Below, piece after piece: positions 7,193 through 53,391 of a DNA stretch of 64,000 nt. The notes beneath the pieces are model-generated. The model did not search any database. It was not told the origin of the DNA and saw nothing but the letters and a program-made list of their open reading frames with translations. The DNA comes from Psammoneis japonica (taxonomy: Eukaryota): positions 124,001 to 188,000 of the forward strand of contig QPGO01000091.1 of NCBI GenBank assembly GCA_008632985.1, in the 5' to 3' direction. Each line of letters begins with the position of its first letter. Positions within the stretch are counted from its first letter, which is position 1. Position numbers and translations under genes: made by a program.

Positions 7193-7193
<1 letters not shown>

Positions 7194-7229: not shown

Positions 7230-7230
<1 letters not shown>

Positions 7231-7444: not shown

Positions 7445-8850
7445 CATGCAAAAGATGTCATGCATGCATCACGTGCACTGGGATCACACAAAAAATTGTG
7501 TGTGTTGATGTTGTTTCTTGTTTGGGCACCAGCGCGCCCAAGTCTGAATTTTGCAATTTTCAGTGGGCTGTCCAAGCAAGCAACAACAAGCTGGAAACAA
7601 TGGCAAGAAGAAGAAGAAGAAAGAACAACAACAAGGTTCACCACAATGCCTCTTTGGGAACCAGCTGCTGGTGCAAAGTGCAAAAACAGCTTGAAGACTG
7701 CCAAGTGAGAGAGCTGGGAAATCCAACGCTTGGGACTTCTTGCAAAAAAAGTTTTGCATGTGCTCAATTTGATCATCAGCAGCAGCACCAGCAGCAGCAA
7801 GACAGTGAGTTGAGTTGTTGTTTTGTTCTTTTTAAGTTTGTTGTGCTGGCTGGGCACAACTCAAGCTTCTTTCTTGTTCTTGAACTCCATTGTTCAACTG
7901 TGTGCACATGGCTTCAACTGTCAAGGCTTGCTCTGTTTGTGAGTGTGCAGAAGATGTCATGCACACACCTCGTGCACTGGGGTCATGCAGAAATTGTTTG
8001 CACGTGTCGCTGTTGTCAGTTTCTTGTTTGGGCACCACCAGCACACCCACCCAAGCATGGCTCCTGACTCTTTTGCACTTTCCAGTGGACTGTCCAAGCA
8101 AGCATCAAGCCAGAAATGTGCAAAAATGGCTTGAAGACTGCCAAACAAGAGCTGGGAAATTTAAAACTTTTCTCACTTGCATCACAAATGTGTCAAACAA
8201 CACATTTTTAGATGTGGGCACAATTGCAAACATTTTGCACGATTTTGTTTTGGAACGTGCATTCTCGGAAAGCTCTGGAGAACCATTTTTGCAATTTAGA
8301 AAGTTCAATGTTGACTTTTAACACCGGCTTTTTTACATGCTGCCCATCCATTCACAGAGAGGAGCCAAATCTTGACCTTTGACAAACAAAATTTGTGATG
8401 AGTTGCTGTCACAAGGGAGATGCAAATGCCACACCCTTTGAGCAAATCTCCACACCGGTGGAAATTTGCTTGCAACAAGCAAATGCATGTGGCATGTTTT
8501 AAATGGATTGCATGTGATGTGGCATTTTCATGCTGTGTTCATCATGTCATTGTGCAAATTGCTGACACATCGCAATTCCTCAAGCAGTCCAGAGCAAATC
8601 TCCACCCATGGAGATTTCTTGCTCCGTGGTGGTTGAAGGGTTGGCAAGACTTTTTGCAACAAGCAAAGTTTTGCATGTGCTCAATTTGATCATTGTCATC
8701 TGCAGTGAGTGGAGATGTTGTTGTGCTTGTTTTTGAGTGCACTGTGCTGGTCAAACAGCAACTCAAGGTTTGTTCTCATTCTTGAACTCTGTTGTTCAAT
8801 TTTGCGTGTGGTTTCAACTGTCAAAGCTCACCCTGTTTGCACTTGCTCAT
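7445..8850. repeat. Non-coding internal repeats (about 7445-7580 vs 7945-8105; 7740-7935 vs 8650-8840), probably a decayed non-autonomous element
   Basis: Shared blocks agatgtcatgca..cgtgcactggg.tca, tttcttgtttgggcacca, ctgtccaagcaagca, gttttgcatgtgctcaatttgatcat and ttcaactgtcaa. Confidence 0.7.
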
Positions 8851-19361: not shown

Positions 19362-19753
19362 AGTTGCAGGGAGAGCAGAGGAAGCATCATGCTCTGTCCG
19401 TCGTTGGCCACTGTGTTCCAACCCTGCGACGGTTCTCGTACTTCTTCACGTGCAGTTGGTGAGTCCACTGAAATCTACGATGCCCAAAATGTGGTGCGCA
19501 CACACGCAACACGAGCCGCCGCAGACCGCAGAGCGAGCGGATTGTTGTTGTCATTTCTTGTGTTGCATCAAAACTCCAGCGCGACGCAACAACACCATGG
19601 GTTCTCTCTCTTTGGCTGTCGATTGGCGAAGGCAAGACTTGATTCAACAGTGACTTGAGATGTCAGCTCTCTTGTGCTTGCACTTTTGAGTTGCGTCTTG
19701 CTTGTTTCGGCTTTGTTGACAGCGTGCTGCAGATGTGCTGTCGAATCATCACA

Positions 19754-22285
19754 ATGACCACTTCAACCCCAACGAACGTCTCAGCACCATCCTTGGCTGC
19801 TTCCATGGAAGAAGAAAGAGAGGGAAATGTGGCTGCCGCTCTTGTGACTCCCACCTCCAAGCATTCCGATGCGAGTCATCATCAGTTTGAGGAGAACTGC
19901 AGCTTGGACTCAACGCCGGAGTCATCTCCTGCCGAATCCACTCTGTTCATGAATCTGTTTTCTTTTCTTGGAATTCGTTTTGAATCTGCCGATGCTGCGG
20001 AGCTCTCGATTCTGTTTTCAGAGCTCGGGGGTTGAGGACGCGTTCCAGGTCCAGGTGGGACCTCGCACTGCTGAACTGTGACATCGACAGTTTTTTGAAT
20101 CGCGTCGCATGTCGCGCACATGCATTTCTACGTGATTTTGGCAAAATTTTGCATCATTTTATAGCACAATTGTCAGGCAATCCACTCAACAACTTTTAAC
20201 ATTTTTTCCTTCTATGCCATTCTCGAGTGTCTTAAGAATGGCGCAGGGCAGGCGCATTGTCCAAAACTTTGAGTGCGAACAGAGACACATGTGCTGCAAA
20301 CTTGGCCGTTCATTTCATGTTGAAGACAAATGTGTCCATTGGCCAAAGTACGAACTGCAGAGCTCACACGCAGAATTCTACGGGGCAAATGTCACAAAAA
20401 GTCCCACCTGGGACTGGAACCCATCTGAGATGGTGGATGATCTTGGACTTTTGGAAGAGAAAGATTTCGAGCGTCTCTCATCGATTTCTCCCGTTTCCAT
20501 GCGAAAGCTCCTTCACGTGATTGACTTCATTCGAAACGGTGGGTCAATTGATGGACTCAGCTGCTGTCGGGATCTGGTCAAGTTTGTCAAGGCTGAAAAA
20601 GCACAATCGGCTCGTGTGTCGGACGACAAGAACGGCAAATCGACAAAGGAGCTTGACTCTGTCGTTGCTCTCAACATTGGAGGCAACAAATTTGCCGCTT
20701 CTCATGACACGCTTTCAAGATTTCCAGGGTCGTTTTTGGAGAGTCTAGCTTCTGGACGGCACCTCAACCTGGCCTGCAAAGACAAGGAAGGTGCCTGCTT
20801 TGTTTGTCATGATGGCACGCACTTTCAGCACATCCTCAACTTTCTCCGTGTCGGAACTGCAGCGACTCTCCTGAAAGAAGCCGTGGCCCGAGAGGCTCTT
20901 GTCATTGAAGCTGATTTCCATGGTCTTGATGAGCTTGTCCGAGCAATCACCTTCCCCAAGATTGATGTCGACGATTTCCTCGACAAGGAGACTGTCAAGA
21001 TTCGCAAGGAGGAGGATGTACTTTGTGAGGCCTTTGCAGCTGGATCAGCTGCCAGTTTTGATCGCCACAGGGGTCTCATTCCTCTTTTTTGTCCAGATGA
21101 TGGTCCTCCATCCCTGCCGTTGACCTGTCAACCAGAAAGCCATTCGCGTGAGAAACATTGTTTGCTCATGAAAAATCTGTGCAATGACGAAGCAACGAAC
21201 CTTGCACCAGCAACGGTTGGAGCCATTGGCAAGTTTGAAACCAACTTCAACCGTGAGCATCCAAACATGCTCCACAGGCTGTCGGAGGTCCTTCGTGAGG
21301 AGCCTGTCGTGATTGCTGGTGGAGCAGTGCTTCGTTGTCTCACCTCCAGCACTGGCATTCGCACGGCCAATTGGCGGGGCGAAAAAAGCGACATTGACAT
21401 GTTCCCACACTGCAGCAATGTGGAAGAGGCCAATCGAATTGCGCGACGCGTGCGCATTGACAGTGGACAACGAAAGGTGGGTGATTGTACGAAGTTGTGG
21501 AGTTGTCACCATCCATGACTGGGTGAGAGGCAGGAAAACGCAGACGCTTCAAATCATTCTTTGGCTGCATCAGTCTCCTGCCGAGGTCCTTCTGGGTTTC
21601 GATTGCGACTGTTGCTGCTGCTCACATGACGGAACATCCGCATGGGTGACCCCAAGATGGCTCCATGACATTCAACACGGCGTCAACATCTTGAACCCGC
21701 TCCATGCGTGGCCAAACAAGCCTTCCCATGAGCTGCGCTTGGCCAAGTGTGCTTGTCGTGGTTTTGCTGTTGCTGTTCCAGGACCGGATCAGACGCGCAT
21801 CGACTGCGACCGAATCCACCGCATGGATCTTTGTAAACTCAAGGGCTTGGCCAGGCTGTTGAAAGTGTCGTTTGAAATTGAGCGCTCACGCAGTCGTTCA
21901 TCCAATGGCATTCACAGCATTGATTCTCTAAAAGATGAGCAAGACAGTTGTGCGGAAATCACCGAGCATGCGATCAATGGAAGAACCGGAGGCCATGACG
22001 AGCTCGGCGATGCTGCAGTGATTGTCCCTTCTAATTGTCATGACGATGTCGGTGATGTCTCGGCTTTCTTGTGGTGGAATGATTTAATTTCCTTCCCTCT
22101 TGCTAGAGAATGCCGTGATCAAGTCTGGGAAGAAATTGAGAACACAGAAAACCCTCCGAACGGGGTGCCAGGTCGTCTCTCGGACTCTTGGAACCTCGAG
22201 AAGAAGTCTTGTGAGCATTTGAACGCCATCATGGACAAGTTCGACCTGGACAATTTGCACTGCATGCAGGGGTACAAGAATGATG
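19754..22285 (+). pseudogene. BTB/POZ (KCTD-type) plus putative nucleotidyltransferase-fold gene, copy 1; MITE-interrupted and frameshifted
   Basis: VALNIGGNKF...TLSRFPGSFL...DG.HF..ILNFLR...EADF.GL (BTB), then IAGGAV..SDIDMF, QIIL.L..SPAEVLLGFDCDCC. Highly similar to 25115-27383. Insertion at 20037-20425 and frameshift near 21450. Confidence 0.88.
20037..20425. mobile_element. MITE family 2, copy a (389 bp, about 24-bp TIR GAC...GTC-type, TGAG TSD)
   Basis: TIRs gacgcgttccaggtccaggtggga / tcccacctgggactggaacccatc; TGAG at 20033-20036 and 20426-20429; absent from the paralogous gene at about 25490-25510. Confidence 0.9.
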
Positions 22286-23781: not shown

Positions 23782-25114
23782 TTTTTGACAAACCTCCCAA
23801 ACCGATCGTCCTCAACATCGTGTCGCTGACTCGCGATAGTATGAACCATTCGAAGACAACCGCTCGGATTGAAGAGGGTGGTATGCTTATTTCAGAGGTG
23901 CTCATCGGTGAAAATCCACTTCTTCCCTGTGATGAACGTGCCGAGGCTCGCTGCTGTACATCGCAGCTTCATTCTTGGACTAGGGTACACTAGAGCTTTA
24001 GCATTCTTTCCTTAGGCTTTCCTACTTTTGAATTCATCATCTTGAATAAAGGCGCGGGCAAATCGAATGAGACATGACAAAAGGCATGTTACATGTTATT
24101 TTTTGCATAATATGGAGTGGGCGACGAATCGAGATCGTCACAGCCAGGCGGCAGAATGTTTTGGAAAGTCCACCGAAATGAGCTACGACAAGCATTGTTA
24201 CAATTGGATTGTCAGACGCGAGTACTTCCTAGTTTGTTTGTGAGCACAACAGCTCTTGCTCCCGTAACCTCTGTCGGTTTCATGATTTGATTTCACAGGT
24301 TCTCGAACGCACTAAAAAAGCTTCAGGCGCACAGACCAACCACCATTTGTGTGCCTCAAACATTGCCAATCATGAACATTGAATCCTGCTTGCTTGACAC
24401 AGAATGTCATCTCAAGACACTGCTGTTGATGAACTCAAAGTTGTTGCCAGTAGGGCCTAAACGGAGCCTCGACGGGGACGATGGAGCAGTTCGTTCGGCA
24501 TTGTTGCACGAATCGCGTGCGACATTCCCTGCACAGTTTCTACGTACGAGGGAATCCGTTTGTACAGTACGAAAAGCGTGGAAGAGCAAAACTGCGCTCC
24601 ATCACTTGCTTGTCTCTGCGCTTCCTTCAGCGGCATGCCACAGTCTAGAGAGAGAGGAGCAGTGTTGTGTGTTGTTGCTGTCTGCTGCTGCTGCTGCTGC
24701 TGAAACCAACCCATCATCATCGAAACAAATCAAGCCACATCTTCCAAAGATCCTGACAGAAATTGAAGACAAACGGCAAGAATTCAAACAACAACTCCTC
24801 ACTGCTGTCTAAATGGCAGATGAGTCTCCGCTCAGAGACCGTTGCAGGAGCCGAAAGACGTGCAAGTCGGCACAATCGGGCTGCTGTTGTTGTTCTTGTG
24901 AGCCTTGTGGCTCGAAAGCAAACTACATCACGCGCGAACGCGCGGAACTAAAGCACACAAAACTGTGCGCGGTGAACCAAACAGCGCGCGACATTTCGCG
25001 CGCACCCAAATCCTGTTCAAATCCTGTCAGATCCAAACTTTCAAAAGCGAGCCTTGTTGCAAATGCCATTTGAGCAGTTTGATTGAATGTGTTCTGACGC
25101 GTGATTTGCTCACC

Positions 25115-27383
25115 ATGAAAACTTGCGCCTGCAGCACCTCTGGCTCAACGCGCAGCATTCCCATTGCGACAGAACTTCAAAAGCAAGATGACAACGCCAA
25201 CGCGATCGTGCGTGGATTTTTCCATTTCCTCCGATGTTTCTTTCTCTGTGAAAGACGAAGATGAGAGCAACACTCCCGCGGTTGTCACCCCGATCTCAAA
25301 GGGTTCAGACGCATCAGGCTTCCCTTGAGATCGCAATGGCGACTGCTGCAACAACGAGAATTTTGGAGCACCGATGGCGAAAACTCCAAATGCAAAGGAA
25401 GCCACAGCTCACTTTGACAGTCTCCTCTCTTTTCTTGGAATTCCATCTGGCTCTGCTGACGCCACAGCGGCATCTGCTCTGCTCAAAGAGCTTGGTGCTG
25501 CTGCAATCGGAGACCTCGAGTTTCTAGAGGAAAAGGATTTCCACAGCTGCATCCATCGATTTCTCGATTTGCCCAGTGCAAACTCCTTCACACAGCATTG
25601 TTCCTTCAAAATGGGGGCTCATTGGACAATGTGACCTCCTTTGAGGATCTGCGTGATGCTGTGAAATCTGGAAAGGCATGCGAACGAGATTGTCCTCGCA
25701 CAAGTCTGAAGAGAACCCTCACCCGAAAAAGGAGCTTGGCCCTGTTGTCACCCCAAACGTTGGAGGCAACAAATTTGCCGCTTCTCGTGGCACGCTTTCA
25801 AGATTTCCAGGGTCGTCTTTGGAGAGTCTAGTTTCTGGACGGCACCTCAACCCGGCCTGCAAAGACAAGGAAGGTGCCTGCTTCATTTGTTGCGACGGTG
25901 CGCACTTTCAGCACATCCTCAACTTTCTCCGCATCGGAGCTGCGGCGACTCTTCCAAAAGGAGCCACGGCCAGAGAGGCCCTTGTCATTGAAGCTGATTT
26001 CTATGGTCTTGACGAGCTTGTCCGAGCAATCACCTTCCCCAAGATTGATGTCGACGATTTCCTCGATGAGGAGACTGTCAAGATTCGCAAGGAGGAGGAT
26101 GCACTTCGTGAGGCCTTTGCAGCTGGATCAGCTGCCAGTTTTGATCGCCACAGGGGACTCATTCCTCTCTTTTGTCCAGATGACGGGCCTCCTTTGCTTC
26201 TGTCGACTTTTCAACCTGAATCCCATTCAAGTGAAAACCATCACTTGCTTGTGAAAAACCTGCACAAAAACGAAGCAACGGACAGCACACCAGTCACGGT
26301 GGGAGAGCTCAGCAAGTTTGAGACCAACTTCAATCGAGAGCATCCAAACATGCTCCACAGGCTATCGGGAGTCCTTCGTGAGGAGCCTGTCGTGATTGCT
26401 GGTGGGGCGGTGCTTCGTTGTCTCACCTCCAGTGCTGGCATTCGCACGGCAAATTGCTGGGGCGAGAAAAGCGACATTGATGTGTTCCTACACTGCAGCA
26501 ACGTGGATGAAGCCAACAGGATCGCGAGGCGTATCTGGCGCGCATTGACAGTGGACGACGAAAGGTGGGTGATTGTACGAAGTCGTGGAGTCATCACCAT
26601 CCATGACTCCGTGGATAGCATGAAAACGCAGACGCTTCAAATCGTTCTTCGGTTGCATCAGTCTCCCGCCGAGATCCTTCTGGGTTTCGATTGCGACTGC
26701 TGCTGCTGCCTTTTTACGACGGGATATCCGTTTGGGTGACCCCAAGATGGCTTCATGCTGTTCAACATGGCGTCAACATCTTGAACCCGCTCCATGCGTG
26801 GCCAAACAAACCATCTCACGAACTACGCTTGGCAAAGTACGCTTGTCGTGGTTTCGCTGTTGCCATTCCAGGACTGGATCAGACGCGCATCGACTACGAC
26901 CGAATTCGCCGCACAGATCTTTGCAATCTCAAGGGTTTGGCGAGGCTGTTGAAAGTGTCGTTTGAAATTGAGCGCTCGCGCAATCATTCATCCGATGGCG
27001 TTCGCAACATTGATACTCTAAGAAGTGACCAAGATAGTTGTACCGAAATTTCAGAGCATGTGATCCATGGGAGAACTGGAGATTACGATGAATTTGACGA
27101 CATTGCAGTGATTATCCCTTCTGATTATCACGATGATGTCGGTGAAGTCCTAGCTGGCATGTGGTGGTGGCATTGGGATACTCCTTTCCCACTGGCCATT
27201 GACTGCCGAGATCAAGTCTGGGAAGAAATTGAAAACAACGAAAGCCCTCCCAACGGGGTACCAGGACGACTCTCGGACGCCTGGAACCTTGAGAAGAAGT
27301 CTCGTGAGTACTTGAACGCCACCATTGACAAGCTTGATCTCGACAACTTGTACTACATGCAGGCGTACAAGACCAAAGACTGA
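25115..27383 (+). pseudogene. BTB/POZ plus putative nucleotidyltransferase-fold gene, copy 2 (frameshifted; 5' part hypermutated, 3' part nearly intact)
   Basis: ORF pieces 25374-25634, 25678-26739 and 26691-27383 are colinear with copy 1. BTB motif reads GACFICCDGAHFQHILNFLR against KCTD consensus G.YFIDRDG..FRYILNFLR. Confidence 0.88.
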
Positions 27384-36188: not shown

Positions 36189-37960
36189 ATCCGGAATTAG
36201 CATTTTTAGGTATTTAAACGCTGCTCTTTAGTAGCTAGCTGCCTGCGTTGAAATCTCACGCGGCGCTGCTTGCTTTGAGGCCCAACGCCGTGCTTCCACG
36301 TGCAACAAAAAAACCTCTTTTTTATCAAAATGCATTTCCAACCGACCAATGCCATGCCAATGCGAAGTTCCCAATGACATAGGGTCACAAGTAGAGAGTT
36401 GCATCAGTCACAGAGCTGTCACCAAAATTCGTCCCTCGCACTTTCCTGTGTGACAAACAAGGTGCTCGGCAAAAAATTGGCTCCATCTTCCAACACAGCA
36501 CCCGATGCTGGGAACAGTGCATGCCCACTGCACTCTCACAAGACATCTGTTCAAAGAGTGTGAGACCAACAATGCTCACATCTTGTGCATTTTGTGGCTT
36601 TGGAAGGGGTCAAAGTCTGGCCAACTCTGCCAAAAATGTTGAACCGAGTGAGTGGGTGTCATGATGCGGGGCTCAAGACACGTGACTCGTCGCTGCACAA
36701 TGAAGAAGCAAGGTTCTTGACCCGTTCTGGACACCATGATCAGATGACAACATCATTGCAAACCAATTTTATGGCAATCTTCTGCTTTCCAGTTTGTCTT
36801 TGTCCCCTCGTGCTGGCAAGCGCATTTGACCTCTTTCGCGCTGCTGCAAGTGGGCGAAGCAATCCACAGGTGCTCATTTACAAGCCCACACTTTTCCATT
36901 TTCAGACATGACATTTGTGTGTCTTTGCGATCAATCTAGAGCATGTGCAAGCCAGGGAGGAGCTCTGTTCACTGTCGTTTGTCATTCCATGGAACAACAG
37001 CATCAGAACATTTTGCCAACATTGTTTGACGCCTTTTTCTTAAACCGTGCACCAACTTCATTCTTCATTTTCACTCTCATCTGCCCAACTCTCTCCCACT
37101 CAAGAACATGTGGCTGAATGCATGACAGTTGCTTTGTCAAAGTCTTCAAAAACATTCATCTGGTCAGCACCATTGATCAAAAAATGGGGTTGACAATGTT
37201 GTGACGGCACTGGATTTGTCGATGTGCTCACATGCCAGAAAAGACAACAAGAGCTGGATGCGGCAGCAACAAAGTTGAGTGAGACAACAAGTGGTGAGCC
37301 TTGGACACATTGACAACACCATTTTGATTTTCAATTTACTTGCCTTTTTACAAACTCAGACTTCAACACAGCGGGCGCCAAAAATCCGGCAAATGGCAAG
37401 TTGATGTGTCGTCTGCATGCAGCACGGAGTCACGAACGGGTGCAACGGTGTGTTTGCACAAAAACTGACTCTTTGCCATTCTCTGATTGTCCCTTTGCAA
37501 CCCCAAACAAAAGGCAGTGTCACAAGTCTGCTGCAGTGATGGGGCTCAAAACAACAATTGTTCAGACACTTTGTCTGCCACATCAATGTCGTCATTGGCT
37601 CTGGTGTTTTTTTGACAAGTTCTCCATGTTGTCACCACAGTGATGGTCTGTGCACTCATCCAGAGCATGCCTGCCATGCCAGTTTGGAGTTGTCCAAGGG
37701 GGTTGGGGCACATGGCAGTGTGATGCCATTGGCCCCAAGCAGGCAACAAAGAACACAGCACACAGGCCTCCTGCAAGCACAAAAGCATGGCAGGGCTTCT
37801 AAAAAAGACATCAACCATGGGCAAGAAAGGCAGATGCAAGAGGGCCAGAGGCGAGGTGAAATCCACTTGCAAAAGTGTTTCACTCAATGAAGTTGATGAT
37901 GAGACCTTGAGGGGCATGACGGCAATGGTCGAGACAAAAGAGTTTGCTGGCAGCTGTGAA

Positions 37961-38864
37961 GACACATTCCAGATGCAGGTGGGAATCCGCGTGACATTGT
38001 TGTGCCCACAAAATTCTGTGTGCAAGCTCCACAGTAAAATCATCAAGCAGTGAACACATCAATGATTGCACCAACCACCAACAGAAAATGAGGCAATTTT
38101 GCCAATGCACAAACTCATCCATGATGCATGTGCATCATTTTTTGCTCAGCCAGGTGCACTCCTTGGACATTGAAGAATGCACCTGGTGCGTTGTTGTTCC
38201 TAAAAATTTGTCAACTTTTTCCACACCCACGCGGTTTTGTGCGATTGCCGCATTCAAATAAAATTTTCAATTGCGAAGAATGCCAAAAACCAAATGACAA
38301 AACTCTCCATTCAAATGAACACAAATGGGTGTGAGCTGTTTTGACCATGACAGTTTTGTCCAATGGCATTGCAACAAGCCACAGGACAGACTTTGAACCT
38401 GCAGTTTGGACAACTGCAAAGAGATCTGTGCCTTGCACAAACCCGGAAAACACATCTGAATGGACTGGGGCAACAGGGTGCAAAAAAGTGACGGACAGAG
38501 ACATGTGCATGCTGGGGATGCATGCAGACACCATGGAAGAGTGACTTTTGGTGACAATTTCTGAAATCTTTGGCCCCATTCAAAGTCTTGCTTCATGCAT
38601 GGGTTTTGTCAGCAGGGCCATGCACCCTGCTTCATTGGTGTCTAAACTGACTGTCTCTGTGGGCTGAAATGTGTCAAGCCGAGTCACCCTGCGGGTGTGG
38701 AAAAAGTCAAACAAAACATCTGGGGTTTCACAAAACAGCAAGTCTGGAACATTTTTTTGGAAGATCACACACAGAAATGTGCATGTCAAACATGCAACAG
38801 ATGACAAAAAACAATTGTGTCACACGCCAGTGCTGCAAGCTCCCACCCAGGGCTGGAACATGTC
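37961..38864. mobile_element. MITE family 2, copy b (longer, more decayed)
   Basis: Ends gacacattccagatgcaggtggga / tcccacccagggctggaacatgtc are CpG-decayed versions of the family TIR; flanks TGAA/TGAG; first about 220 bp align to 40254-40470. Confidence 0.75.
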
Positions 38865-40253
38865 TGAGTGGCATTCATTCCGCCATTTGTCTTGGCAATG
38901 AGGATGCTCCCACCTCAGAGATCCACATGGGCAGTGAGGGCAATTGCACATCATGGGCTCTTCTCAAAGTTGGCAGTGTTGAGGCCATCTCATCTTCTTT
39001 GCAATGTGTGAAAGTTAAAACACAACATTTTGTTGGCAGAGCCAGGCTGTTTTGCTTTGTGTTGCTCCGCTCTCACCCATGTTCTGTTGTGGCTGGCAAG
39101 GAGTGCAGCCAAGCTCTTTTCCACTGTGCTGGACTCTGATTGTGATTGTGGCTTTGTGCATCATTTGTTCTGCATTCCGGGAGTGAGCATCCTTGCAAAA
39201 TGACTTGCAAATTTGTGATCCATGATGTGCTCAACATGGCTGAAATCTTGCAGACCAGTGGGATTGAAGCTGTTGTTTTGGCCATCCACATCATTTGGCC
39301 TGACAAAAATGCCTTCACAGCATGGAGTTGTCATGCAGCAAAAAAGTGTCACACCACAGTGTGTTGCATTGAGTTTCAAAATTGCACAGCATCACAAAAA
39401 ATCATGTCCTTTGGTGGCATCCCTGCCATGTGCCATGTGGTGGCACACATGAAGGGTTGCCCTGACTCCACAGCAGCGCAGGGCAGTGGATGCTTCTTGG
39501 CGCCAATGTTGCTGTCACATGATGCTTCAGTCAGTGGCAACCTGCCCACAGTGGGGATGGGGTGAATTGCATGGCCCTCCTCAAGTGCAATGAGGAAGCA
39601 GCAGCCTTGAACCCTCCTGTGAATGGGCTCTGCTTGGCACTCACAAGGCTCCATGCAATGTGGCAAAATGGAAGTCCCTCAACAACGTTCAGCAGGCTTG
39701 AGTGTTGTCATGGTGTGTTGGAGGAAAGGTGTGCCTGTTCAGATGTCAAAAAAAGAGAAGTTGCTTGGGTTTGTTTCTCATGAGCAAGCAAATTGAGGTT
39801 TGGTGAGCTTGCTGTCACACACCATGCAGCAGCTTGTCTGCAGCCACCAGCACTGGTTGAGTCTCTGAGCACAGAGCACTCGATGTCATGCTTGGAGCCA
39901 GTGTGGGCATCTGTGTTCTTTTGTTTTGTCACACACACATGCCAGCCTAGATCATTTGCTTGGATTTGTTTGGGGCAGTTCTTTAGAAGTGCTCTGTGCT
40001 GCAGGTGGAGTCCGGCTTCAACAAAAGCCAAAAGATGGCCCCACATGTCATGTGCACCCACTCTGCTTCTCTTTCTTTTGCCAGGACCTCACCCAATCGC
40101 ACGGTGGTGTCATTGCTTTTACAAACAGTGTTTTTTGAAATTTTGAAGTGTGTTGGGCGTTTGGAGACAACCCACAAGTCCCTTGAGTTTGAGTTTGCAG
40201 TTCGCAGTGAAGCGTGCAAAAAAAAAAAAGCTTCCAGCTTCCACCAGCCATCT

Positions 40254-40650
40254 GACGGGTTCCAGTCCCAGGTGGGACTCCGTGTGACATTGGGCCCGTA
40301 GAATTCTGAGTGCGAGCTCCGTGGCAAATTTACACTGCAATGAAAATGTGAATGATTGCCAACAGAAAAAGAGGCAATTTTGTGAACGCATCTCCTCCTT
40401 CACACTTGGAGCACATCATTGACAGTTTGCCTGGGTGTGTTCTTCAGACATTAAAGAATGTGCCCAGTGCATTTTCATTCTCACAAATGTTGAAAACAGA
40501 AAGCCTTTGGCTTCGCAAAACAGGGAGTGTGAAACAGTTTCGTAGAATGTCACACGTAGAAATGTGTGTGCGTGACATGCGACGCGATCCAAAAAACTGT
40601 TGATGTCACAGTTCAGCAGTGCGAGGTCCCACCCAGAGCTGGAACGCGTC
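40254..40650. mobile_element. MITE family 2, copy c (397 bp, ATCT TSD), inverted relative to copy a
   Basis: TIRs gacgggttccagtcccaggtggga / tcccacccagagctggaacgcgtc; ATCT at 40250-40253 and 40651-40654; both ends match 20037-20425 in reverse complement. Confidence 0.92.
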
Positions 40651-43139: not shown

Positions 43140-45600
43140 CTGCTCGAGTAAACCCCAATCTTGTACTCTTTTGGGCAAGTTGGATTTGCCAGCGGCATGA
43201 TCTGTGCCCAAGCAAACAGCGCATGGTCGTGCTCGCTTTTTTGCACTGACATCGACGTCTTCTCCTGTTGTCACCTTCGTTTTGGGTTTTCTTCCCATTG
43301 CTTTCTTCGCCTGCTTGGAATGACTCTTTGCCATTTTGTGTGCCGCTGACTGCTTTGACTCTCTTTTGTTCTGTTGCTTGTGATCACACTGTCTAAAACT
43401 TTTCCTGAACTCTACATTCAGCCAAACCGAGATCTTCGAAGAGTTTTATAACGTGGTCAGTTGGGTTGGTTTTAGAAAGCCCAACAAGACCAGCAATGCC
43501 AATTTCCCAGCTTCTTGAGTGGTTCTGATTCAGCCACTTTCCCTGTGAGCACTTTGTGACCATGGACCACAGACACAACTTGGCAGGTGGTCCTCAATGC
43601 CTTGGACAGCTTGGGGGTGTGCTTTTCTTGTTGAATCTCAGCATCACTTCATTCGTCACATCATGGAGGAGTGTGCTTGCTTGTTGAGCTCTAGAGGACA
43701 ATCAAAGTGACTGCACTGCTTGGCCACCATCTCCTGTGGCAGCAACTCAATTGCATCTTTGCTCACTTTGTTGTTTCAGGCATGTCTGCATTCCAGTTTC
43801 AACCAAGCAAAGCTGCAGCAGTTTGAGTTGATGCAACCCAAGTGATCTCCAATGTGGCATGGGAAAACATTGAAATTTTTCTTTTTCACATCCTCAAAAT
43901 GCTGGTTGGTTGGTTTTTTTTGTTTTCACCCCATGACACCTTTTTCAATTCTTTCAAGCACTGCTTGATGCCATGCATGGCCATTGCAATGCAAGAATTT
44001 TCCAGATTGCCAACACCATGTCCAAACTTTTGTCCTGTTTCTTTGCTGTGCACATTGATTTTGCCAAGCTCTTCAATGCATGAGCACAGTGTGGAATTTT
44101 TTCAGATTCACCAATGGCTTCTGCCCCCATTGTTTCAATTTGTTTTTGCCACAATTGATTGTCTCCCTTTGAGCCACCATTGCTGGTGGTGAGGCACAAG
44201 TGCATGGCAAGAAAATCTCCCAAGCACACTCCTCCATTTTTTTGCCCCCAAGGAGCAAACAATTTCCAAATTCCTCTGGCATGTGCCAGTTGGCAATTGG
44301 CAGTGCATTCATGGAAATGCTCATGTGCTTGCGCCATTGTGCTTTGTTCCAACAAACAATGACAGATCTCTTTCTCCATTCCTTGGTGTTTCATGCATTG
44401 CATGGCAACATTTCATGCATGCCACGCAAGAAGCACCAATTGCCATGGGCAAATCCAAGATGCTGGAAATGGAAATCAAGCCATCAGTGCTTTGGATCCT
44501 CCCTGTCAAGTGATTCCTGCATGATCATGTGGTCCTGCATTCATCCATTTGTGCCAACACCCTGGCAATGCACCACTTGTCACCCTTGGAACCCTTTTGT
44601 TTGATTGTGTCACCATCCTCATCAAAGTCGAGACTTGACTGCATTGCCTTGATCTCTTGGCTGCTTCTGAATTTTCATTTTTGTGCTTTTTTTGCCATCA
44701 TTTTGTCCAGATTGGTGGAGACATGTTGAGCCTGGTGGATGACTGTGTTCACAAGAAATGCCTTTTTTCTGACACAGCAGTCATCTTTGCATGCTCAGTC
44801 ATGTGAAACTGATCTTTCTCCCCACATGCAGCAACAAGTGTCAGTGAAGCCGAGTCCATCCTCCTTGTTGAATTTGAGCAGCTTGACATTTGGGAACCGA
44901 GGTGCCTTTTGCTCTTGCAGCACTTGTGATGATTGAGTGCCCAAAACAGCAGAAGCCCCACAATGTGTGGGTTTTGATGCACCATGTGACATGTGACATG
45001 TGCTTGTGAAAATCAATTGGCAATGCATTGGACTTGACTTGAGGATCTTTGTTTTCCTTGTTGCTTTCCTCACTGCTGAGGACTTAAAATTCTTCAAACA
45101 TCAGGTTTGCAGCATTGTGAGAAAATGTGTTGAGCAACGGACATTCTGTGTTGGCACTGGGTGTGGTTGCCCAGTTCTGTAAAGTCAAATTTAAGCTGAA
45201 GCAGCTGACTCCACACCAAGGATCAAAAGCACCTGACCAATCACTGCACATGCTCTCAACGACCATCCTGAAGTCTGCAATTGCAAGCCAGGGGTTAACA
45301 CCACATGGAGCAAGAGCCTTTTGGAGCTGTTGCAACAAGCAAAACTTTTTTGTGCAATCCAGAGAAAATTTGGACATTTCCTGCAGCTTTTTCAGGTGTG
45401 CGACACCTGAAATGATTCATTTGTGCTTGGGCAGGGAGACATGACACACACTGGCAGTGATGAAATGAACAAGTCACATGGAAAATCTGAAAGTGCGTGC
45501 TGACATCAGCATCACTGTGTTTTGTGTTGACTCTTCTGGGCATTTTCAGCAATGAATGTGATTTGTCAAGAGGGTCATTTCAGCAAAAAAAGATGAATGA
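43140..45600 (-). mobile_element. Decayed coding element, possibly a DNA-transposon transposase
   Basis: Only weak hints: Lys-rich tail ending CAVC...H, and a GDH..C...C pattern, inside a hypermutated tract. Family not identified. Confidence 0.3.
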
Positions 45601-45899
45601 GAATGAGAGAGCTTGAGACAGGCAAAAAAAGGGGGGTTCCATCCTCAAGCATTTGCCATTGACCACCATTGATGGTGCCATTTTTGCCAGACAGTGCAAA
45701 ACTGAGCCATTCAAGCTGTTTTTCTTTTGTCGCATGACTCAAGGCAACATTGAGCCACTCAAGCTGTCATGCCAGCACTGGCATTTTGGAAATTTTAATC
45801 AAATTGTCAACACATGAAATTCACACAAGCCCCATTTAAAAATGTGCTCAAACACTTCAGCTCAACAAATGTCTAAAAACAACAGCCACTCAAATTTCC

Positions 45900-48800
45900 C
45901 ATTTTCTCCATAATTCTGAAGAAGTGTGGCATCAATGGGGAGGTGTGCCATGACAGCAACTGTGACAGTGCATCTCTGTTGTGTGAGTTGGGCACACCTC
46001 CATCACTGACATCATGCCAGAAATGTGATGGGAAACACTTGAAGCCAGAAAACAATCTGATTGATTGCTGATGCAGAGGTGAGACAGAAATGTGACAAGT
46101 GGGGGACCCTGCTTGTTGGTTGGCTTGATGCCTTGTTCTGTTCAACACATGGCAGCAAGCCACCTGGCATCTGACAAACGAGGAGCTGGAAAAAACTGGA
46201 GCATGCATTGACCTTGTCACAGAACTGTTGTCTGAATTGGACACGCTGGTCATGATAAAAATGCACTTGGCATTCAAACAGCCCACACCAAAGTTCTGCA
46301 AAAGCTGCCAACCTGACCCCCACCAGTGCATCCCAAGGTGCAACCAAAACCTGACAGGGAGCAGAAAGGGGCAGCTGAGGGAGGCACAAAAGCAGCCACA
46401 GCATTGGGAGAGCAGAAGGAGTGCAGAATGCAGTGTGAAGGGCATTTGTTGGAAGGGATGGGGGAGGATGGAGCAGGAAGAGAGGAGGTAAAGTGGAGAG
46501 CATGCATTGAGAAATGGCAAACCAGGTTGCAGCTGAGCATTGAATGGCCCATTGAGATGGAAAGGCAGAATGATTGGTGCTGCCAAAGTGATTGTTGGAG
46601 AGGTGATGCCAGCCAAAATTAGCCACAAGAAAGGAAGGAGCCCAGACAGAGAAAAGCCAGGGCATGGTGCAGGAAGGCAGAATGGGAGAAATTGGAATTG
46701 TGGAGGTCAGAAGGGGAGGACCAGGAGGCTTGGGCTGAGAGCAGGTGGAGGAGAGTGAGGTGCCAAAGAGGGAGCAATGGCAAAAAAGAAGCCAAGGCTG
46801 GGTGCCAAGGTGATCAAAAAGGCAAAGGGTGGGAGATGGATGTCGTCAATGTCAAGCAATGCAACAATTGACAACAAGGGATCTGTCAGTGGAGGTGGCA
46901 GAAGGGCCAAGGAACTTCAGTCTTGCACTTGTGTGGTGTGCCTGAGTCAAGAGAGAGGTGGAGAGAGGAGGCAGAACAGGAGGAGGGTGAGAAGGAGCTT
47001 GGGAAATGGCGGTGTTGACAGGAATGTGGTGATGTTGGGATGAGGGAGCCAAAAGGGAAGTGGGAGGTGGCATGGAAATGCCAACATCAGCAGGACAGAG
47101 GACAGAGCAAGCAGGAATGAGATTTGCAGGTTCAAGGTGAACGTCATTGGAGGAATGATGCAGCTTGGCAAGAGCTTGGATTTGTTTCCATGGTGGCAGG
47201 AGAAGGTGTGATCACCACAAGCATCAAGCATGTCATGGCCACAGGGGCAGGGTGCACCAGCAAGGGAGCAAAGAAGGATGGGAAGACACAGCTTGCATTG
47301 GGCAGCAATGACACAGCCATCAGAAGCAAGGCAAGAAGAGTTGGAGAGCATCAAGAAAGGGAGTGAAGAGGGAGACTCTGGTCAGCAGGGAAAGGAGAGA
47401 AAGCAAAGCAATTCAAGCATCAGAGGGAACATGAGCAAGAGTGGCAGAGACCACTTGCTGTTGATGACCATGACACAGGCAGCATGCAAGGCCAAGGAGA
47501 GCAACAGTTTTGACAAGGCTGGCAAGAGATGAGGCAGAGCGAGGAGGAAGAGCCAGGATTGAGAATGGAGGCAAAATTGCCGAAGATTGCATGGAGCTGA
47601 AGGGTTGAGCGCGGGTGGTTCCAGGGTGACAGAATGAGCCAGAAGCATCAAGGGAAGGAGATGGTGTCACCAGATGGCAACTGAGCCCTGCAGGCAGCAA
47701 AGTGGAAGGACTGAAGGAGGGCAACAAGGAAGGAAGGGGGATGGCAGCAGAGGACGGGTTGCAAAGGCCAAACCTGCCAAATGAAGCAGGAAGGAAGGTG
47801 GCAGCAAGGGAGTGGGGAGGGAGGGATGAGTCAGAGTGAAGGTGGTGAAGGAAGTGGTGAGCAGTCATGAGAAGGGAGGCTTGAAAGGAGGAGGTCCAAA
47901 GGCACGGGTCAGGAGGGTCATTGGTGGGGTCAAAGTCATGAAAGTTGGTGCCAAGGAGGTGGGCAGAGGAGGGGGTGAAGCAGTGCTTGAATGGTTGGGC
48001 TTGAGTTTGTTTGTCATGAAGGCAGGTGAGGAGCATGCCAACTTTGTCAGAAAGTTTGGGGGCAGTCTCAGAAAGAAAGGAGTTGGCAAAAGCCTGAGAG
48101 CCAAGAGGCTGACCAAGAAAGTGTGCGCCAGAAGTGAGCTTGGGATTGCAGGAAAGGTTGTTCAGAGGGTCAAGGTGGGAGAGGGCAGCCCAAAGGGGGT
48201 TAGCTTGAGAGGAAGGAAGAGCAGGGATGGAGCCAGCACCAGCAGTGGAAGCAAGGATCTTTGCAATTTGCAGGTTGAGCTCGATGCCGCAGGGAGTGCC
48301 AAGAGCGGAAAATGCTCAAGGAACCAAGGAAGAGCAGTGTGAGGAAGAAAACATGAGCATTGTCAATGTCAGAACCAATGGAGGTAGGAGAGTGGCCAGG
48401 GAGGCACTGGAGCAGTTGCTTGTTGAGGGGGTGGAGTGCAAGGGAGAGAACAAGACTGGTGAAGACATGGCCAGGAGGACAGCCTTGGGCAAAGTCTTCT
48501 TCTTGAACAAAGGAGCACCACAAGAAGTCAGGGCAACAAGAGCAGAAGGCATTGGGGCATTGGTGTGTGAGGTCAAAGAAAGGAAGGAGAGAGGGCAGAA
48601 GGCCTCAATGGAAGCAAGAAGATCCCTGCAAGCATCACAAGAAACTTTGTCAAACATGTTGACGAGGTCAAGGAGCAGGCAGGAGGGCCTTGGTGGGGCT
48701 GGCGGAGGAAAGGTGGCATTCAATGTGCAGAGTGAACAAGGTGGCTAAGACCACCTTTGACACTGATGCCAAATTGGCCATCAGGAAGATGGTGTTTGGT

Positions 48801-50100
48801 GAAGGCAGATGATGCAAAGAGGGTCATGATGAAAGATCCGGCAATGTGACAAAGGGCTGTGCCATCACTAATTGGGTGGAGCTTGTGGAGATCTGTTGGA
48901 TCCTTGTGAAGAGCAACAAAGCAGTTGGAGGCAAGCAAAGGATGAATGAATGGAGGAACAGAGCCATTGAGAAGAAGAAGAAGAGCGAGCTTCTGAAAGG
49001 AAAGGAGGTGGCTGGGGATGTTGCAACTCACCAGTGAAAGTTTTGGTGGAATGGAGGGCACAGAATTTGAGCAGCTCAGCAGAATTGGCAAAGACACCAG
49101 CAGCTGCAATGGGTTTGCACTCAGAGAGTGCAGAGAGGAGAGCTTCAGCAGAGAGTGCAATGGGCTCATCATGAGGCAAAGAGGTGGATTGGGTGGAAAG
49201 AGCAGCAGAAGTGCTGCATGGAAGGATGAAGACAAGAAGGGTGAAGCTTGAGCTTGGGAGGGAGGCACTCAAGAGTGGCAGTGGTGATGGGGAACACACA
49301 GAGGTGAGCTGGGAGCAGGCCGAATGAAAGTTGTCTTTGTTGGCACAGACCTGAGTGGAGTGGCAGTGAGTGGAGGCAGAGAAGTTGGGAGAAGAAGAGG
49401 CAGAGGAGGGGGGTGGGCAAAAGAGAGAAAGTCTCATCATGCAGTTGGCAAACACAGCCCCAACAGAAGAGAGCAAGGTGGAGAGCTGTTGCAGGGCCAA
49501 ATTTAGAGCACCAAGGAATGGGAGCAAGGAGAACAAGAGCTCAGGAGAGAGGAGCAGGAGTTTCCAAAAGGGTGTGGAGTCCCATTGCCATTGAGGAACA
49601 AGGTGAGCAGGGTCAAAGATGTGCTGAGAAGAAGCAAGGACCTGTTGAACCACATGTGATGGAGAGTGGAACAAAGTTCCTTGTGGAAAAAGGAAGAGAG
49701 CTTGCCCCAGGAGGAGGTGCAAATGGGAGGAGGCATGAGCTCAAGGGAGTGGAGCCATCATTGAAGGGAAGAATGCCAAGAACCAGTGCTGCAAAGGGCA
49801 GAGGAGATCATGCCAGTGGCAAAGAATGAAAAAGGCACTTGAGAAAGAGAATGATGGGGATGCTCCTGACAGAGATGACTGCACACAACAGCAGTGGGAA
49901 GAGTGGATGAATCTGAAGAACAAGGAGACCAGGAGCAAAAGGGGCAAGCCAGCGGGGAACAGGTGCCAAGGGGTTCCATGAGGCAACGAGGAGGTCACGG
50001 GGAGAGTCAAAGTCAGGAGTGGTGGTGAGGATGGCAGCGTCAGAGAGTGGCATCCAGTCAGAGATGTGAGCTGGGCAATGGGCAGCAACAGCCAACTGGA
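45900..50100 (-). mobile_element. Decayed non-LTR retrotransposon, CRE-like (RT, CCHC finger, restriction-like endonuclease)
   Basis: In order on the minus strand: ALHKD..KLHPISDG.AL (RPI), QFGISVKGG, LLLDLVNMFDKVS, FAQGCPPG, DIDN (YxDD), GRFGL, CPCG..LDA.GDH.FSC, PADV. Ends uncertain. Confidence 0.82.
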
Positions 50101-50315
50101 ATGACAAGAAACCAATTTTCAAGCAAGAATTTGGGCCTGGATTGAAATTTTTGCAGCCTCCTCCTCTGACTCATGTGAATCTCCTTGTTGGAATCCAACG
50201 ACACACTGATGGTGCTGGCTTTGGTGGTGGGCTGTTGTTTTTGGTTCAAGATTCCTTGATGGGCTGACCATTTGCCGTTGTTGGTGTTGATCCACTTCTT
50301 TCAATGGAGGTTGCA

Positions 50316-51716
50316 TGCCACCCATGTTTGCAATGTGCAATGATGCGCTGCTGCAGAGCCAAGATGCACTCCAGTGCAATGTTGCAAAGAGATGCAACCA
50401 GCAGAAATCTCTTGATGGGGAACCAAATGGATGGACAAGAATCTGCTTGAAGAGTCATTTGCTGCCTCAGATCAAAGCCACAAACAAATGCAAGGCAAGA
50501 AGTGTTGGAAGGATGGAGACAGAAGAAAAACTTCCACTGGAGGGATTGTCAGTTGGCTCAGAATGCTGAGGCATGGCTGACGCTAGAGGGAGGTTTGCAG
50601 TGGCCATTGTCAGGACAACAGACCACTGGGGAGGAATTTGTGTTGGGTGCAATGATGTTGCTGGTGTTGGAGCCAAAGTCACTGGTTTCATTGTTGGCTC
50701 TGAGCCAATGCCCATCTCTTCTAAATCCACCAGCACCTCACATTTTTCCCACCCAATCATCCATGTCACATGTCATCCAACAATCCTTTGTGCAGTTGAA
50801 TGATGATGCAAGAGCCAATCAACTTCCATCACAATTGAGACTTGCAGTCAGTCCTTGACATTTTGGGTCTCCCATTTGTCCTCATTTGCTGGACAAGGAG
50901 TCACCAAGCATGCTCCAGAGTCACAGTCACATGACAGCAAACCGTGTCACCAAAATGCTTGGCAATCCCAAGAAAACAGCCAGGAAGCCTTTTTGACTTT
51001 GGAAAAGACTCATTCAAGACGCAGTGCCAAACCGGTGCCCCAAAAGACAAATTGGAACATGCTGGTTTCAGGAGCATTGCCAAAGTGCAACTCCTCTGAA
51101 GTTTGCCACCCGTGTTTGCGACGTGCAATGATGCACTGCTGCAGAGCTGAGATGCACTCCAGTGCAACATTGCAAAGAGATGCAACCAGCAGAAAGCTCT
51201 TGATGGGAACCAAACAGACAGACAAGAATCTGCTTGAAGAATCATTTGCTGCCTCAGATCAAAGCCACAAACAAATGCAAGACAAGAGCTGTTAGAAGGA
51301 CAGAGACAGAAGAAAAACTTCCACTCAAGGAATTGTCAGTTGGCTCAGAATGCTGAGGCATGGCTGACGCTAGAGGGAGGTTCGCAGTGGCCATTGTCAG
51401 GACAACAGACCACTGGGGAGGAATTTGTGTTGGGTGCAATGATGTTGCTGGTGTTGGAGCCAAAGTCACTGGTTTCATTGATGGCTCTGAGCCAATGCCT
51501 GTCTCTTCTAAATCCACCAGCACCTCACATTTTTCCTGCCCAATCATCCATGTTGCATGTCGTCCAACAATCCTTTGTGCAGTTGAATGACAATGCAAGA
51601 GCCAATTGACTTCCATCACAATTGAGACTTGCAGTCAGTCCTTGACATTTTGAGTCTCCCATTCCTCATTTGCTGGACAAGGAGTCACCAAGCATGCTCC
51701 AGAGTCACAGCCACAT
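50316..51716. repeat. Direct repeat pair of about 615 bp (50316-50932 and 51104-51716)
   Basis: Colinear alignment; differences dominated by CA/TG/CG swaps. Confidence 0.93.
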
Positions 51717-51779
51717 TCTTTTTCTGCATCTTCTTCTTGACATTCTAGTCGCCACTTCTGGTTGAATGCATTGTTGCAT

Positions 51780-53000
51780 CTGGACAGCACACTGGACAAT
51801 GGTCCTCAGGAGCTGCATTCAAGTGCATGAGGAGCACAACAATGCCATGTTCCCCCACACAATTGGAGCCATCTGCATTGGGCCCGCCACAGCAATGAAC
51901 AAGGTGTAAATTGCCTCATGTCCCTCTCCTCAGGAAAGCACATTGTTCACAACAAACGACTGATTTGCCTGTTCCAGCAGATGCAATCCACTGGGTCAAT
52001 GAGCTTGGCCACATGCAGGACATGCACGCCACCCTCATGTTCTTCATGTGGAGACACCAACATGCTGAACATGACCACCCCCCAGCTCAGCAGATGGCAA
52101 CCATGACTTGGGCTGTGACCCCAGCAACAATGCTTCTGATGGCAAGCCTCTCTAAATGCAAACTCAGACTCTTCATGAGATGACTCAACCAGTGATGATT
52201 TTTGATCTGGACAACCTGTCATGGCTGCATCCTGTCCTGCAGGAGTGAGGCCTTTTGTTGACTGCATTGACCGCCGCACCCACATCATCACCACAGATGT
52301 GTGAACAACATGAGCAACAATTGGAGTGCATTGCCAGCTGCTGCAAGACCTCAGCAGATAAAGCACCAGGCACCACAGGAGTGGGAAATGCAGGAGTGGG
52401 GAGCCATGCAGAAAAAACAACAATGTGGACAGTCCAGGAGACTCAGAGTCAGACGTGGTGGCACCTGATCTCATCCCAGGGAAACATGATTTCATGCCAC
52501 CACCAGATGATGATTCAAGCAATGATGAGAGTGTGGGACCAGATGAGAGTTGATGTCAACTCAAGCAATGATGAGAGTGTGGGACCAGATGACTGCCAAA
52601 GGAATGATGACAAACCCAGTGACAGTGCTGACATGCCAGCCCCAAAAAGTGCAAAATGCAGCTCTGGTGACTCCAACTCTGACAATGCCAATGACAACAA
52701 GGATGTCATGGGTGACATGGGCTGCACATGTTGCAATTTGACCCTGGCTCAAAATCTTTAGGTGCAAAGAAGGAACATGAGACTGTGGCTGCAGGTGTGA
52801 CTCTGAGAGCTCAACTGGCAGTTGCGGCACCCCAGCATGCAACATTTCGAACACCCGGTGGGCACCCTGTTTCCAGCCAAACAGAAGTTGGCAAAGAAAT
52901 GGCTGAAAGCTTGCCAGGGTCAAGGCCAGTGCAATGGACAAGGAAATGAAACAACTGGATTTCCAGGATGTCACCCAGCTGGTGATTGCCAAAGACACAG
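51780..53000 (+). mobile_element. Decayed Ty1/Copia (diatom CoDi-like) pol fragment, post-integrase region to RT start
   Basis: IQVHEEHNNAM.P.TIGAIC.GP..NEQG..MSLSSG, LPVP.D.I..V..LG, acidic linker, then KK.LK...A..KEMKQL. Confidence 0.72.
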
Positions 53001-53391
53001 CACTGCCACAGACTCTCGGCAGTTTTTGTGTTGAGGTGCCACGCAGCATGGCAGGTGTTGCCAATGACAAGAGGAGGACACATCTTCTGCATTCTCCCCA
53101 CCTTTCTTCCACTGTCACACTTGGCTCACCCCTTTCTTCTTGAATCGAAATCTAGAGTGTCTCCTGTGTGTGGATGACTCTCTGCTCGCTGGGTGACTTC
53201 CTCTCAAACTGTCCCGCGTGCGTTGACAGACATGACATGATGATGAGAGGCAGCGCGTCGAGAGCGCATTTTTTTGCTTTGCCTCTCTTATTGTGAGCAT
53301 TTATTTCACAACTCACAACTTACTCGAGCATCTGCGCTGGGCCTATCATCCTTCTTACTCCTTACTCTTTGCTTGCAGGAATAGCCACGCA

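Follow-up and report, generated by a model that had tools for sequence, protein, structure and literature searches.

So far, a single preprint has described hypermutation restricted to TpA, in a single alga. In the chlorarachniophyte Bigelowiella natans, integrated viral DNA and other foreign DNA undergo TpA-restricted hypermutation, with an elevated mutation rate measured directly in some lineages. Of the 231 de novo mutations that mutation-accumulation lines showed in two regions, 230 were A to G or T to C, all of these at TpA (Mettrop et al., bioRxiv 10.64898/2026.01.13.699255). The preprint also describes an enrichment of reverse transcriptase and DDE domains among TpA-poor coding sequences, and it proposes an ADAT2-like adenine deaminase as the agent. 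Its main text contains no analysis of flanking bases or sequence context, and our literature search found nothing else on such hypermutation in diatoms or on a flank rule. Here we analyze a 64-kb stretch of DNA from Psammoneis japonica (contig QPGO01000091.1; "the window" means this whole stretch), which contains tracts that have lost nearly all of their TA dinucleotides. The few TAs that survive in these tracts have strongly biased flanks. This is a property of the kind of hypermutation that was already reported, here in a new lineage.

Several other systems are relevant for comparison. In repeat-induced point mutation (RIP), which occurs in Neurospora and other ascomycetes, dense transitions with a dinucleotide preference are confined to duplicated DNA; they are C to T changes, mostly at CpA, which make TpA. 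TadA and ADAT2 convert A to I (read as G) at A34, which follows U33, and their listed context is 5'ACG (PMC10661471, Table 1). In the same table, ADAR prefers U before the edited A, with 5'UAG as a hot spot. BjADAT2/3, a natural tRNA deaminase of amphioxus, can act on DNA as well; in E. coli DNA it deaminates adenine in the context 5'GAA, and it prefers hairpin loops (PMC10354150). In the A-to-I mRNA editing of sexual-stage fungi, P(TA) is 21.8 to 233 times the value for other dinucleotides, and a strong bias is described for the -1 site only (PMC13431901). Finally, the hot spots of Pol eta in somatic hypermutation are WA, and TA is hot on both strands (PMC7884765).

Within the window, we distinguished four tracts that are depleted in both TA and CG (21,634 bases in total), two tracts that are depleted in TA only, and a reference of 35,006 bases of non-depleted sequence with 1389 TA, which we call ordinary sequence. 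Each TA was assigned to one of four flank classes (YTAR, RTAR, YTAY, or RTAY, where Y is a pyrimidine and R is a purine). The tracts are:

250..1750, no strand: TA- and CG-depleted tract, with 11 TA left (4 YTAR, 0 RTAY)
3830..10300, no strand: TA- and CG-depleted tract, with 21 TA left (15 YTAR, 0 RTAY)
36500..40500, no strand: TA- and CG-depleted tract, with 18 TA left (9 YTAR, 0 RTAY)
43500..53160, no strand: TA- and CG-depleted tract, which includes 45780-53160, with 28 TA left (21 YTAR, 0 RTAY)
19500..22250, + strand: TA-only depleted tract (CG is kept) with a BTB_2-domain paralogue (copy 1), with 16 TA left (7 YTAR, 3 RTAY)
24750..26500, + strand: TA-only depleted tract with the second BTB_2 paralogue (copy 2), with 8 TA left (4 YTAR, 0 RTAY)

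The depleted tracts have sharp boundaries. Across the four TA- and CG-depleted tracts, the ratio of observed to expected counts (O/E) is 0.05 for TA, 0.14 for CG, 1.75 for TG, and 1.86 for CA; the corresponding values in ordinary sequence are 0.58, 1.0, 1.19, and 1.20. In the two TA-only tracts, O/E is 0.09 for TA and 0.82 for CG. AA, AT, and the remaining dinucleotides are near normal in the depleted tracts, with 166.1 AA+TT per kb (vs. 164.9 in ordinary sequence). As in B. natans, then, A:T to G:C changes at TpA lie in bounded regions, and TpA is depleted while CpA and TpG are enriched. Relative to what the preprint describes, the depletion is far deeper here (the TA O/E of 0.05 compares to a Rho of 0.45 for their region from a nucleocytoplasmic large DNA virus), the organism is different, CpG is also lost from most of the tracts, and a duplicated host-type gene has been struck.

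The surviving TAs are mostly flanked by a 5' pyrimidine and a 3' purine. Between 45780 and 53160, there are 23 TAs, and 17 of them are YTAR (6 CTAA, 5 TTAG, 4 CTAG, and 2 TTAA). The other six are all RTAR (3 ATAA, 2 GTAA, and 1 GTAG), so RTAY and YTAY are both at zero. Two of the 23 are second copies within a 617-bp repeat (50584/51371 and 50722/51509), which leaves 21 independent sites, 15 of them YTAR. The 21 TAs at 3830-10300 include 15 YTAR, 4 RTAR (3 ATAA and 1 GTAA), 2 YTAY (both TTAC), and no RTAY. Given the base composition of each stretch, we would expect 0.238 or 0.25 of the TAs to be YTAR, and the excess is highly significant in both (binomial p = 5.6e-7 for 45780-53160 and 1.0e-5 for 3830-10300). 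An earlier examination by eye, made from the letters alone (the sequence-only reading), had reported about 17 YTAR among about 22 TAs in the first stretch, about 14 of 20 in the second, and no RTAY in either, with about a quarter YTAR expected by chance. Our counts agree with it closely.

All four TA- and CG-depleted tracts together contain 78 TAs: 49 YTAR, 17 RTAR, 12 YTAY, and 0 RTAY. RTAY is also absent from each of the four tracts taken singly. We compared these counts to four null expectations. First, among the TAs of ordinary sequence, 238 (17%) are YTAR and 435 (31%) are RTAY (Fisher p = 6e-18 for YTAR and 6e-13 for RTAY). Second, the flanks of TG and CA within the tracts are even, with 23% YR and 24% RY (p = 6.7e-14 for YTAR and 3.9e-10 for the lack of RTAY). 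Third, the base composition of the tracts predicts 19.3 YTAR among the 78 (p = 1.3e-12), so the excess that the sequence-only reading had noticed persists after normalizing for composition. Fourth, the 433 TAs in ordinary sequence outside of open reading frames (ORFs) of at least 120 amino acids are 23.6% YTAR and 22.2% RTAY. Overall, these nulls predict 17-25% YTAR, and p ranges from about 1e-12 to 1e-18.

The result is not sensitive to how the sites were chosen. Three of the 78 survivors are second copies of repeats, and dropping them changes nothing material. A threshold-based automatic segmentation gave 45 TAs, of which 31 are YTAR, 9 are RTAR, 3 are YTAY, and 2 are RTAY. As a control, the flanks of surviving CGs are only mildly biased, with frequencies of 0.21-0.28 at +1. 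The two TA-only tracts are less skewed, with 11 YTAR and 3 RTAY among 24 TAs; these tracts are less completely depleted, and a weaker skew is what kinetics predicts. The TA-only tract at 19500-22250 is in a less advanced state.

If we compare the tetramers NTAN between the depleted tracts and ordinary sequence, as the sequence-only reading had proposed, survival is graded. It is highest for TTAA (0.53), followed by CTAA/TTAG (0.32), CTAG (0.24), GTAA/TTAC (0.15), ATAA/TTAT (0.10), and CTAC/GTAG (0.014), and it falls to zero for RTAY. For ATAC/GTAT, ATAG/CTAT, ATAT, and GTAC, 0 of 574 expected-class sites survive in the tracts.

A TA survives only if both of its base pairs survive, so the two flanks enter symmetrically. 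We therefore treated each TA as two half-sites, each being the 3' flank of the A on one strand. By half-site, survival is 0.23 for TAA, 0.12 for TAG, 0.035 for TAC, and 0.023 for TAT. Among the half-sites of survivors, the frequencies of A at +1, G at +1, and A at +2 are 0.51, 0.31, and 0.62, as compared to 0.20, 0.23, and 0.27 for ordinary TAs. The preference at +2 is strong in its own right: 84 of the 127 TAR half-sites in the tracts are TARA (TYTA when read on the other strand), whereas ordinary sequence has 385 of 1192 (p = 2e-13), and the background chance of A following A or G within the tracts is 0.26-0.32.

We also fit Poisson models with multiplicative flank effects. The loss exponents were 0.18-0.49 for TAA, 0.90-0.99 for TAG, 1.92-2.23 for TAC, and 2.56-2.67 for TAT, so the ranking of loss is TAT ≥ TAC > TAG > TAA. 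The two-flank model improves greatly on a single loss rate (likelihood ratio test statistic of 120.6 or 76.9, depending on the offset, with 3 degrees of freedom). The proposal in the sequence-only reading that mutability depends on the flanks, and that a 5' purine or a 3' pyrimidine favors change, is thus supported as the simplest account of the counts, with TAC and TAT having the highest loss exponents. Adding the +2 base improves the model further (statistic of 66.4, 3 degrees of freedom); with A at +2 as the baseline, the added loss is 1.0 for C, 1.0 for G, and 1.8 for T. The second flanking base is as important as the first, and A at +2 protects.

The combination of the two positions is clearest if we classify TAs by their number of TARA half-sites and compare densities between the tracts (21.6 kb) and ordinary sequence (35.0 kb):

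Two TARA half-sites (TYTARA): 18 in tracts, 23 in ordinary sequence; density ratio 1.27 (confidence interval 0.68-2.35)
One TARA half-site: 48 in tracts, 339 in ordinary sequence; density ratio 0.23
No TARA half-site: 12 in tracts, 1027 in ordinary sequence; density ratio 0.019

For all TAs together, the density ratio is 0.091. TYTARA hexamers are not depleted at all, and the spared site is TYTARA rather than YTAR. Two examples are:

43690..43695, no strand: undepleted hexamer TCTAGA, one of the 18 TYTARA sites in the depleted tracts
8160..8165, no strand: undepleted hexamer TTTAAA, another TYTARA site

The products are symmetric between the strands. TG and CA are about equal in each of 14 sub-tracts, even where one strand is very rich in purines, so both strands are struck about equally. 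The purine-rich stretch is at 46000-50000, where the frequencies on the + strand are 0.32 for A, 0.36 for G, 0.16 for C, and 0.16 for T. TG and CA are nevertheless balanced there (197/202 and 184/185), so this skew is not a by-product of strand-biased loss of TA and CG. No reading frame of this stretch matches a Pfam family.

Comparisons between duplicated sequences indicate that DNA already in place was mutated. The two BTB_2 paralogues are 84% identical, and their differences include 181 transitions and 68 transversions. The 3' part of copy 2 (to 27372) retains TA, and we used it as the unmutated reference for copy 1. At the 26 TAs of copy 2, copy 1 has TG at 9, CA at 8, TA at 4, and other dinucleotides at 5. 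As outgroups, we used two metagenome contigs (L001 and L002), which are ~55% identical to the BTB genes at the DNA level and have normal TA content over the gene. This polarisation is limited by the low identity and by there being just 7 aligned sites with TA in both outgroups. At those 7 sites, copy 1 has TG at 2 and CA at 5, while copy 2 has CA at 4, TA at 2, and TT at 1. The dinucleotide O/E values, the paralogue sites, and the outgroup TAs (TG or CA in copy 1 at 7/7) all correspond to changes of A:T to G:C at TpA only.

A direct repeat within a TA- and CG-depleted tract gives similar information:

50316..51716, + strand: 617-bp direct repeat (50316-50932 and 51104-51716), 93% identical, with 34 transitions, 4 transversions, and 10 TG/CA doublets

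Overall, the repeat copies differ by 50 TG/CA doublets, where one copy has TG and the other has CA. In these, the same ancestral dinucleotide was struck independently on opposite strands, after the duplication. The doublets of the BTB pair comprise 5 YY, 5 RY, 2 RR, and 2 YR, which cannot separate a directional rule from a non-directional one. Both copies of the 617-bp repeat retain GCTAGA and TCTAAA.

The same erasure of TA and CG seems to occur in other DNA. One end of the L002 locus (1-600) has an O/E of 0.21 for TA, 0.15 for CG, 1.97 for TG, and 1.77 for CA; the contig also contains a BTB relative with 45% identity, and over that gene its TA content is normal. The 10 TAs that are left in this end include 8 YTAR and no RTAY (p = 4e-4).

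We can now compare the rule to the known systems. Like RIP, the process causes dense transitions that are confined to tracts or duplicated DNA and that have a dinucleotide preference. Unlike RIP, it destroys TpA and makes CpA and TpG; TpA, which RIP would raise, is lost here, and CpA is gained. Also unlike RIP, a 316-bp tandem duplicate with 99.4% identity is untouched. This duplication (35547-36178) has 2 transversions between its copies, retains all 9 TA and 20 CG in both, and directly adjoins the depleted tract that starts near 36250-36500. Evidently, short or young duplicates are not hit.

Among the deaminases, TadA and ADAT2 are similar in that T at -1 is absolute here and TAC is highly sensitive. 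They differ in that TAT is struck at least as hard as TAC and that TACG is not conspicuously sensitive. Furthermore, tRNA-Ser(AGA) is a natural substrate of ADAT, but TAGA, which corresponds to its anticodon context, is one of the best-spared sequences here. BjADAT2/3 offers a natural eukaryotic A-to-I activity on DNA, but its 5'GAA context does not fit: the -1 base is always T here, TAA is the most spared +1 class, and neither GA nor AA is depleted. ADAR and fungal mRNA editing share the T or U before the edited A, with RNA as their substrate. Unlike ADAR, whose hot spot includes G at +1, the process here spares TAG ~3-5x better than TAC or TAT (survival of TAG is 0.12); also, TG and CA are about equal, and a gene that is not from a retroelement was struck. 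Unlike fungal editing as described in the cited source, +1 and +2 matter strongly. Pol eta shares the mutation of A:T at TA on both strands, but WA includes AA, and AA+TT is undepleted here; also, we see transitions only, with near-complete saturation. So the preference matches none of those documented for ADAR, BjADAT2, or Pol eta in the sources that we cite, and TadA only in part. The sequence-only reading had called the flank bias a usable fingerprint of the responsible enzyme, to be compared with the preferences of Pol eta and TadA. As a fingerprint it does exclude the WA of Pol eta (AA is intact), the UAG of ADAR, and the GAA of BjADAT2, and it fits TadA partly; it names no enzyme.

Our explanation, which we consider very probable, is that the flank bias reflects the context-dependent mutability, or kinetics, of TpA-specific A:T to G:C hypermutation. 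A tract-restricted process would drive TpA to TpG or CpA, by A:T to G:C transitions on DNA, on both strands about equally, and CpG would likewise be lost to TpG or CpA in most tracts. The rate at a TA would be set by two bases on each side. TAs with pyrimidines after the A (TAC, TAT, and T at +2) would change fastest, TAG and TAA would change more slowly, and the rate would be near zero if both sides read TARA (the hexamer TYTARA). Because the rate is set by the flanks, today's TAs would be mainly the slowest substrates and not random leftovers. The counts show directly that the flanks are biased, that this bias reaches the second base, that the products are symmetric between strands, and that TA rather than AA is the target. 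The agent would be an enzyme that reads a short single-strand context. We tentatively favor a DNA adenine deaminase as the most likely class. An isolated purine between pyrimidines would flip out more easily than one that is stacked in a purine run. A simple model of DNA breathing was rejected, by inference from the excellent survival of the most AT-rich contexts (TTTAAA). We speculate, with less assurance, that the two-base rule could reflect the substrate choice of a DNA adenine deaminase that occurs naturally, is chromatin-targeted, and acts in genome defence in diatom-like algae (and in B. natans, if the same rule holds there).

Which base is changed is harder to tell. Survivor counts cannot separate a 3' pyrimidine that promotes change of the A from a 5' purine that promotes change of the T on the same strand. 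In principle, the products can: the ratio of YTGY+RCAR to RTGR+YCAY is 1.32 in the TA- and CG-depleted tracts and 1.42 in the TA-only tracts, vs. 1.19 in ordinary sequence (p = 0.056 and 0.106). With ordinary sequence as the stand-in for the ancestor, these ratios tentatively suggest that, in ~80% of mixed sites, the A preceding a pyrimidine is the base that changed. The counts of trinucleotide products were too noisy for use.

Several observations count against this explanation. The product direction (YTAY to YTGY and RTAR to RCAR) emerges only weakly, and two YTAY sites among the clean changes of the BTB pair became YCAY. RTGY+RCAY should be elevated in the TA-only tracts but is not (34.0 vs. 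33.6 per kb). GTAC, which should be the most sensitive class, survives three times in 19500-22250, and twice at homologous sites of both paralogues. The model with +1 only is incomplete, as it retains a residual deviance of 27.9 on 12 degrees of freedom (p = 0.006). All survival ratios rest on proxies, since the tracts lack an ancestral sequence and the window has no intact copy. The number of survivors is small (78 TAs), and a few of the sites are common to repeat copies. Finally, neither an enzyme nor a DNA modification was observed.

The alternative that fares best keeps the same rule and places the chemistry on T: T at TpA would be modified, for example by hydroxylation to 5hmU-like bases, and would then mispair with G. 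In that case the rule would read that T preceded by purines is struck. Thymine modifications may prefer TpA in some protists. Also, T to C on one strand is A to G on the other, TG and CA are about equal, and the sequence does not tell the two chemistries apart. Still, our literature search turned up no enzyme for converting T:A to C:G in DNA, whereas adenine deamination yields the change directly and has precedents, so we consider thymine chemistry to be unlikely.

Another alternative is that the survivors are new TAs, made after the erasure by ordinary or context-biased mutation of TG and CA (for instance, TCA to TTA by a TC-preferring cytosine deaminase or CAG to TAG via CHG methylation). 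TG and CA are certainly very abundant, TTA or TAA is present in 64 of the 78 survivors, and a private TA in one repeat (repeat C) faces TG in its sister copy (GTTAGA/GTTGGA). But unbiased creation of TA, given the even flanks of TG and CA, predicts ~19 RTAY where we see none. A TC- or CHG-directed origin was rejected, as neither TC nor TGA is depleted (TC O/E is 0.98, and TGA is not low). Creation of new TAs would also leave 12 CTAG and the A at +2 unexplained, and GCTAGA and TCTAAA are common to diverged repeat copies (76% and 93% identity). Furthermore, context-dependent removal would still be required to hold RTAY at zero. We consider this account to be quite improbable.

More doubtful still is the idea that the survivors are protected or selected sites, such as functional motifs, element termini, protein-bound sites, or TAs beside a methylated CpG. 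Several CTAGA(G/T) survivors do lie near tract edges (3841, 36937, 43692, and 53153). There is also a hint of a CpG effect. Of the 29 TAY half-sites that survive in the four TA- and CG-depleted tracts, 18 are TACA, TATG, or TACG (that is, TACG and its decay products), vs. 39% in ordinary sequence (p = 0.011), and TACG accounts for 4 of 16 survivors in 19500-22250. A CpG directly 3' of TA may protect it, possibly via methylation; this is a lead rather than a result. However, the bias involves 66 of 78 sites that are scattered over four unrelated tracts, the tracts have no detectable coding capacity (0 of 155 ORFs exceed a Pfam cut-off), and the rule is a graded one with two positions, not a single motif. 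Least credible of all is an error-prone polymerase of the Pol eta type, or RNA editing by ADAR followed by reverse transcription: the WA hot spots with TA hot on both strands (PMC7884765) and the U before the edited A (PMC10661471) are in their favor, but AA+TT is undepleted, TAG is better spared than TAC or TAT despite the UAG hot spot of ADAR, and the equality of TG and CA everywhere and the mutation of a duplicated host-type gene are unlike the editing of a single retroelement RNA strand.

If context-dependent TpA hypermutation by a deaminase is correct, then there would be a natural A-to-G editor of DNA whose specificity could be used to pick and test candidate enzymes. The quantitative context rule makes the search testable, as candidate deaminases could be compared on DNA that differs only at +1 and +2. 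With this rule, Pol eta, ADAR, and the one natural ADAT2 known to act on DNA can already be set aside as simple explanations. The 231 published de novo mutations can be checked against the same rule. The signature (TA lost except at TYTARA) could also be used to screen genomes for how widespread the process is.

The window is otherwise eukaryotic and gene-dense, with ORFs that contain the domains GH47, WLM, SNAP, BTB_2, zf-MYND, and LRR. Diatoms (Odontella, Thalassiosira, and Nitzschia) supply the best named relatives of its GH47 protein, at 51-56% identity. In the Atlas, the cluster is labeled Haptophyta, for 2 members. We scanned the ORFs of the tracts (28 of at least 150 amino acids and 127 of 75-149 amino acids) against Pfam, and none of the 155 scored above a family cut-off; there were a few chance-level matches at E = 0.001-0.01. 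Naming the tracts as transposons from this window is therefore unsupported. Concerning a foreign or mobile origin of the bounded tracts, no ORF in them matches a Pfam family above its cut-off, and two tracts span the duplicated BTB_2 gene.

Some features of the tract edges are worth recording. At 40500-41000, a shoulder of the adjacent tract has low TA (2 and 2 per 250 bases), while CG is back at normal (16 and 8), which suggests that TA loss reaches beyond CG loss at this edge. Just upstream of the TA-only tract at 19500-22250, CTAGAG occurs five times within 19027-19095, with spacings of 9, 21, and 24 bases, in a TA-rich stretch (22 TA in 250 bases). Finally, part of the region upstream of the BTB paralogue occurs a third time, in inverted orientation: 20034-20437 matches 40240-40653 on the opposite strand (91% identity over 101 bases and 85% over 80 bases), and this copy lies where the depleted tract 36500-40900 has its edge.

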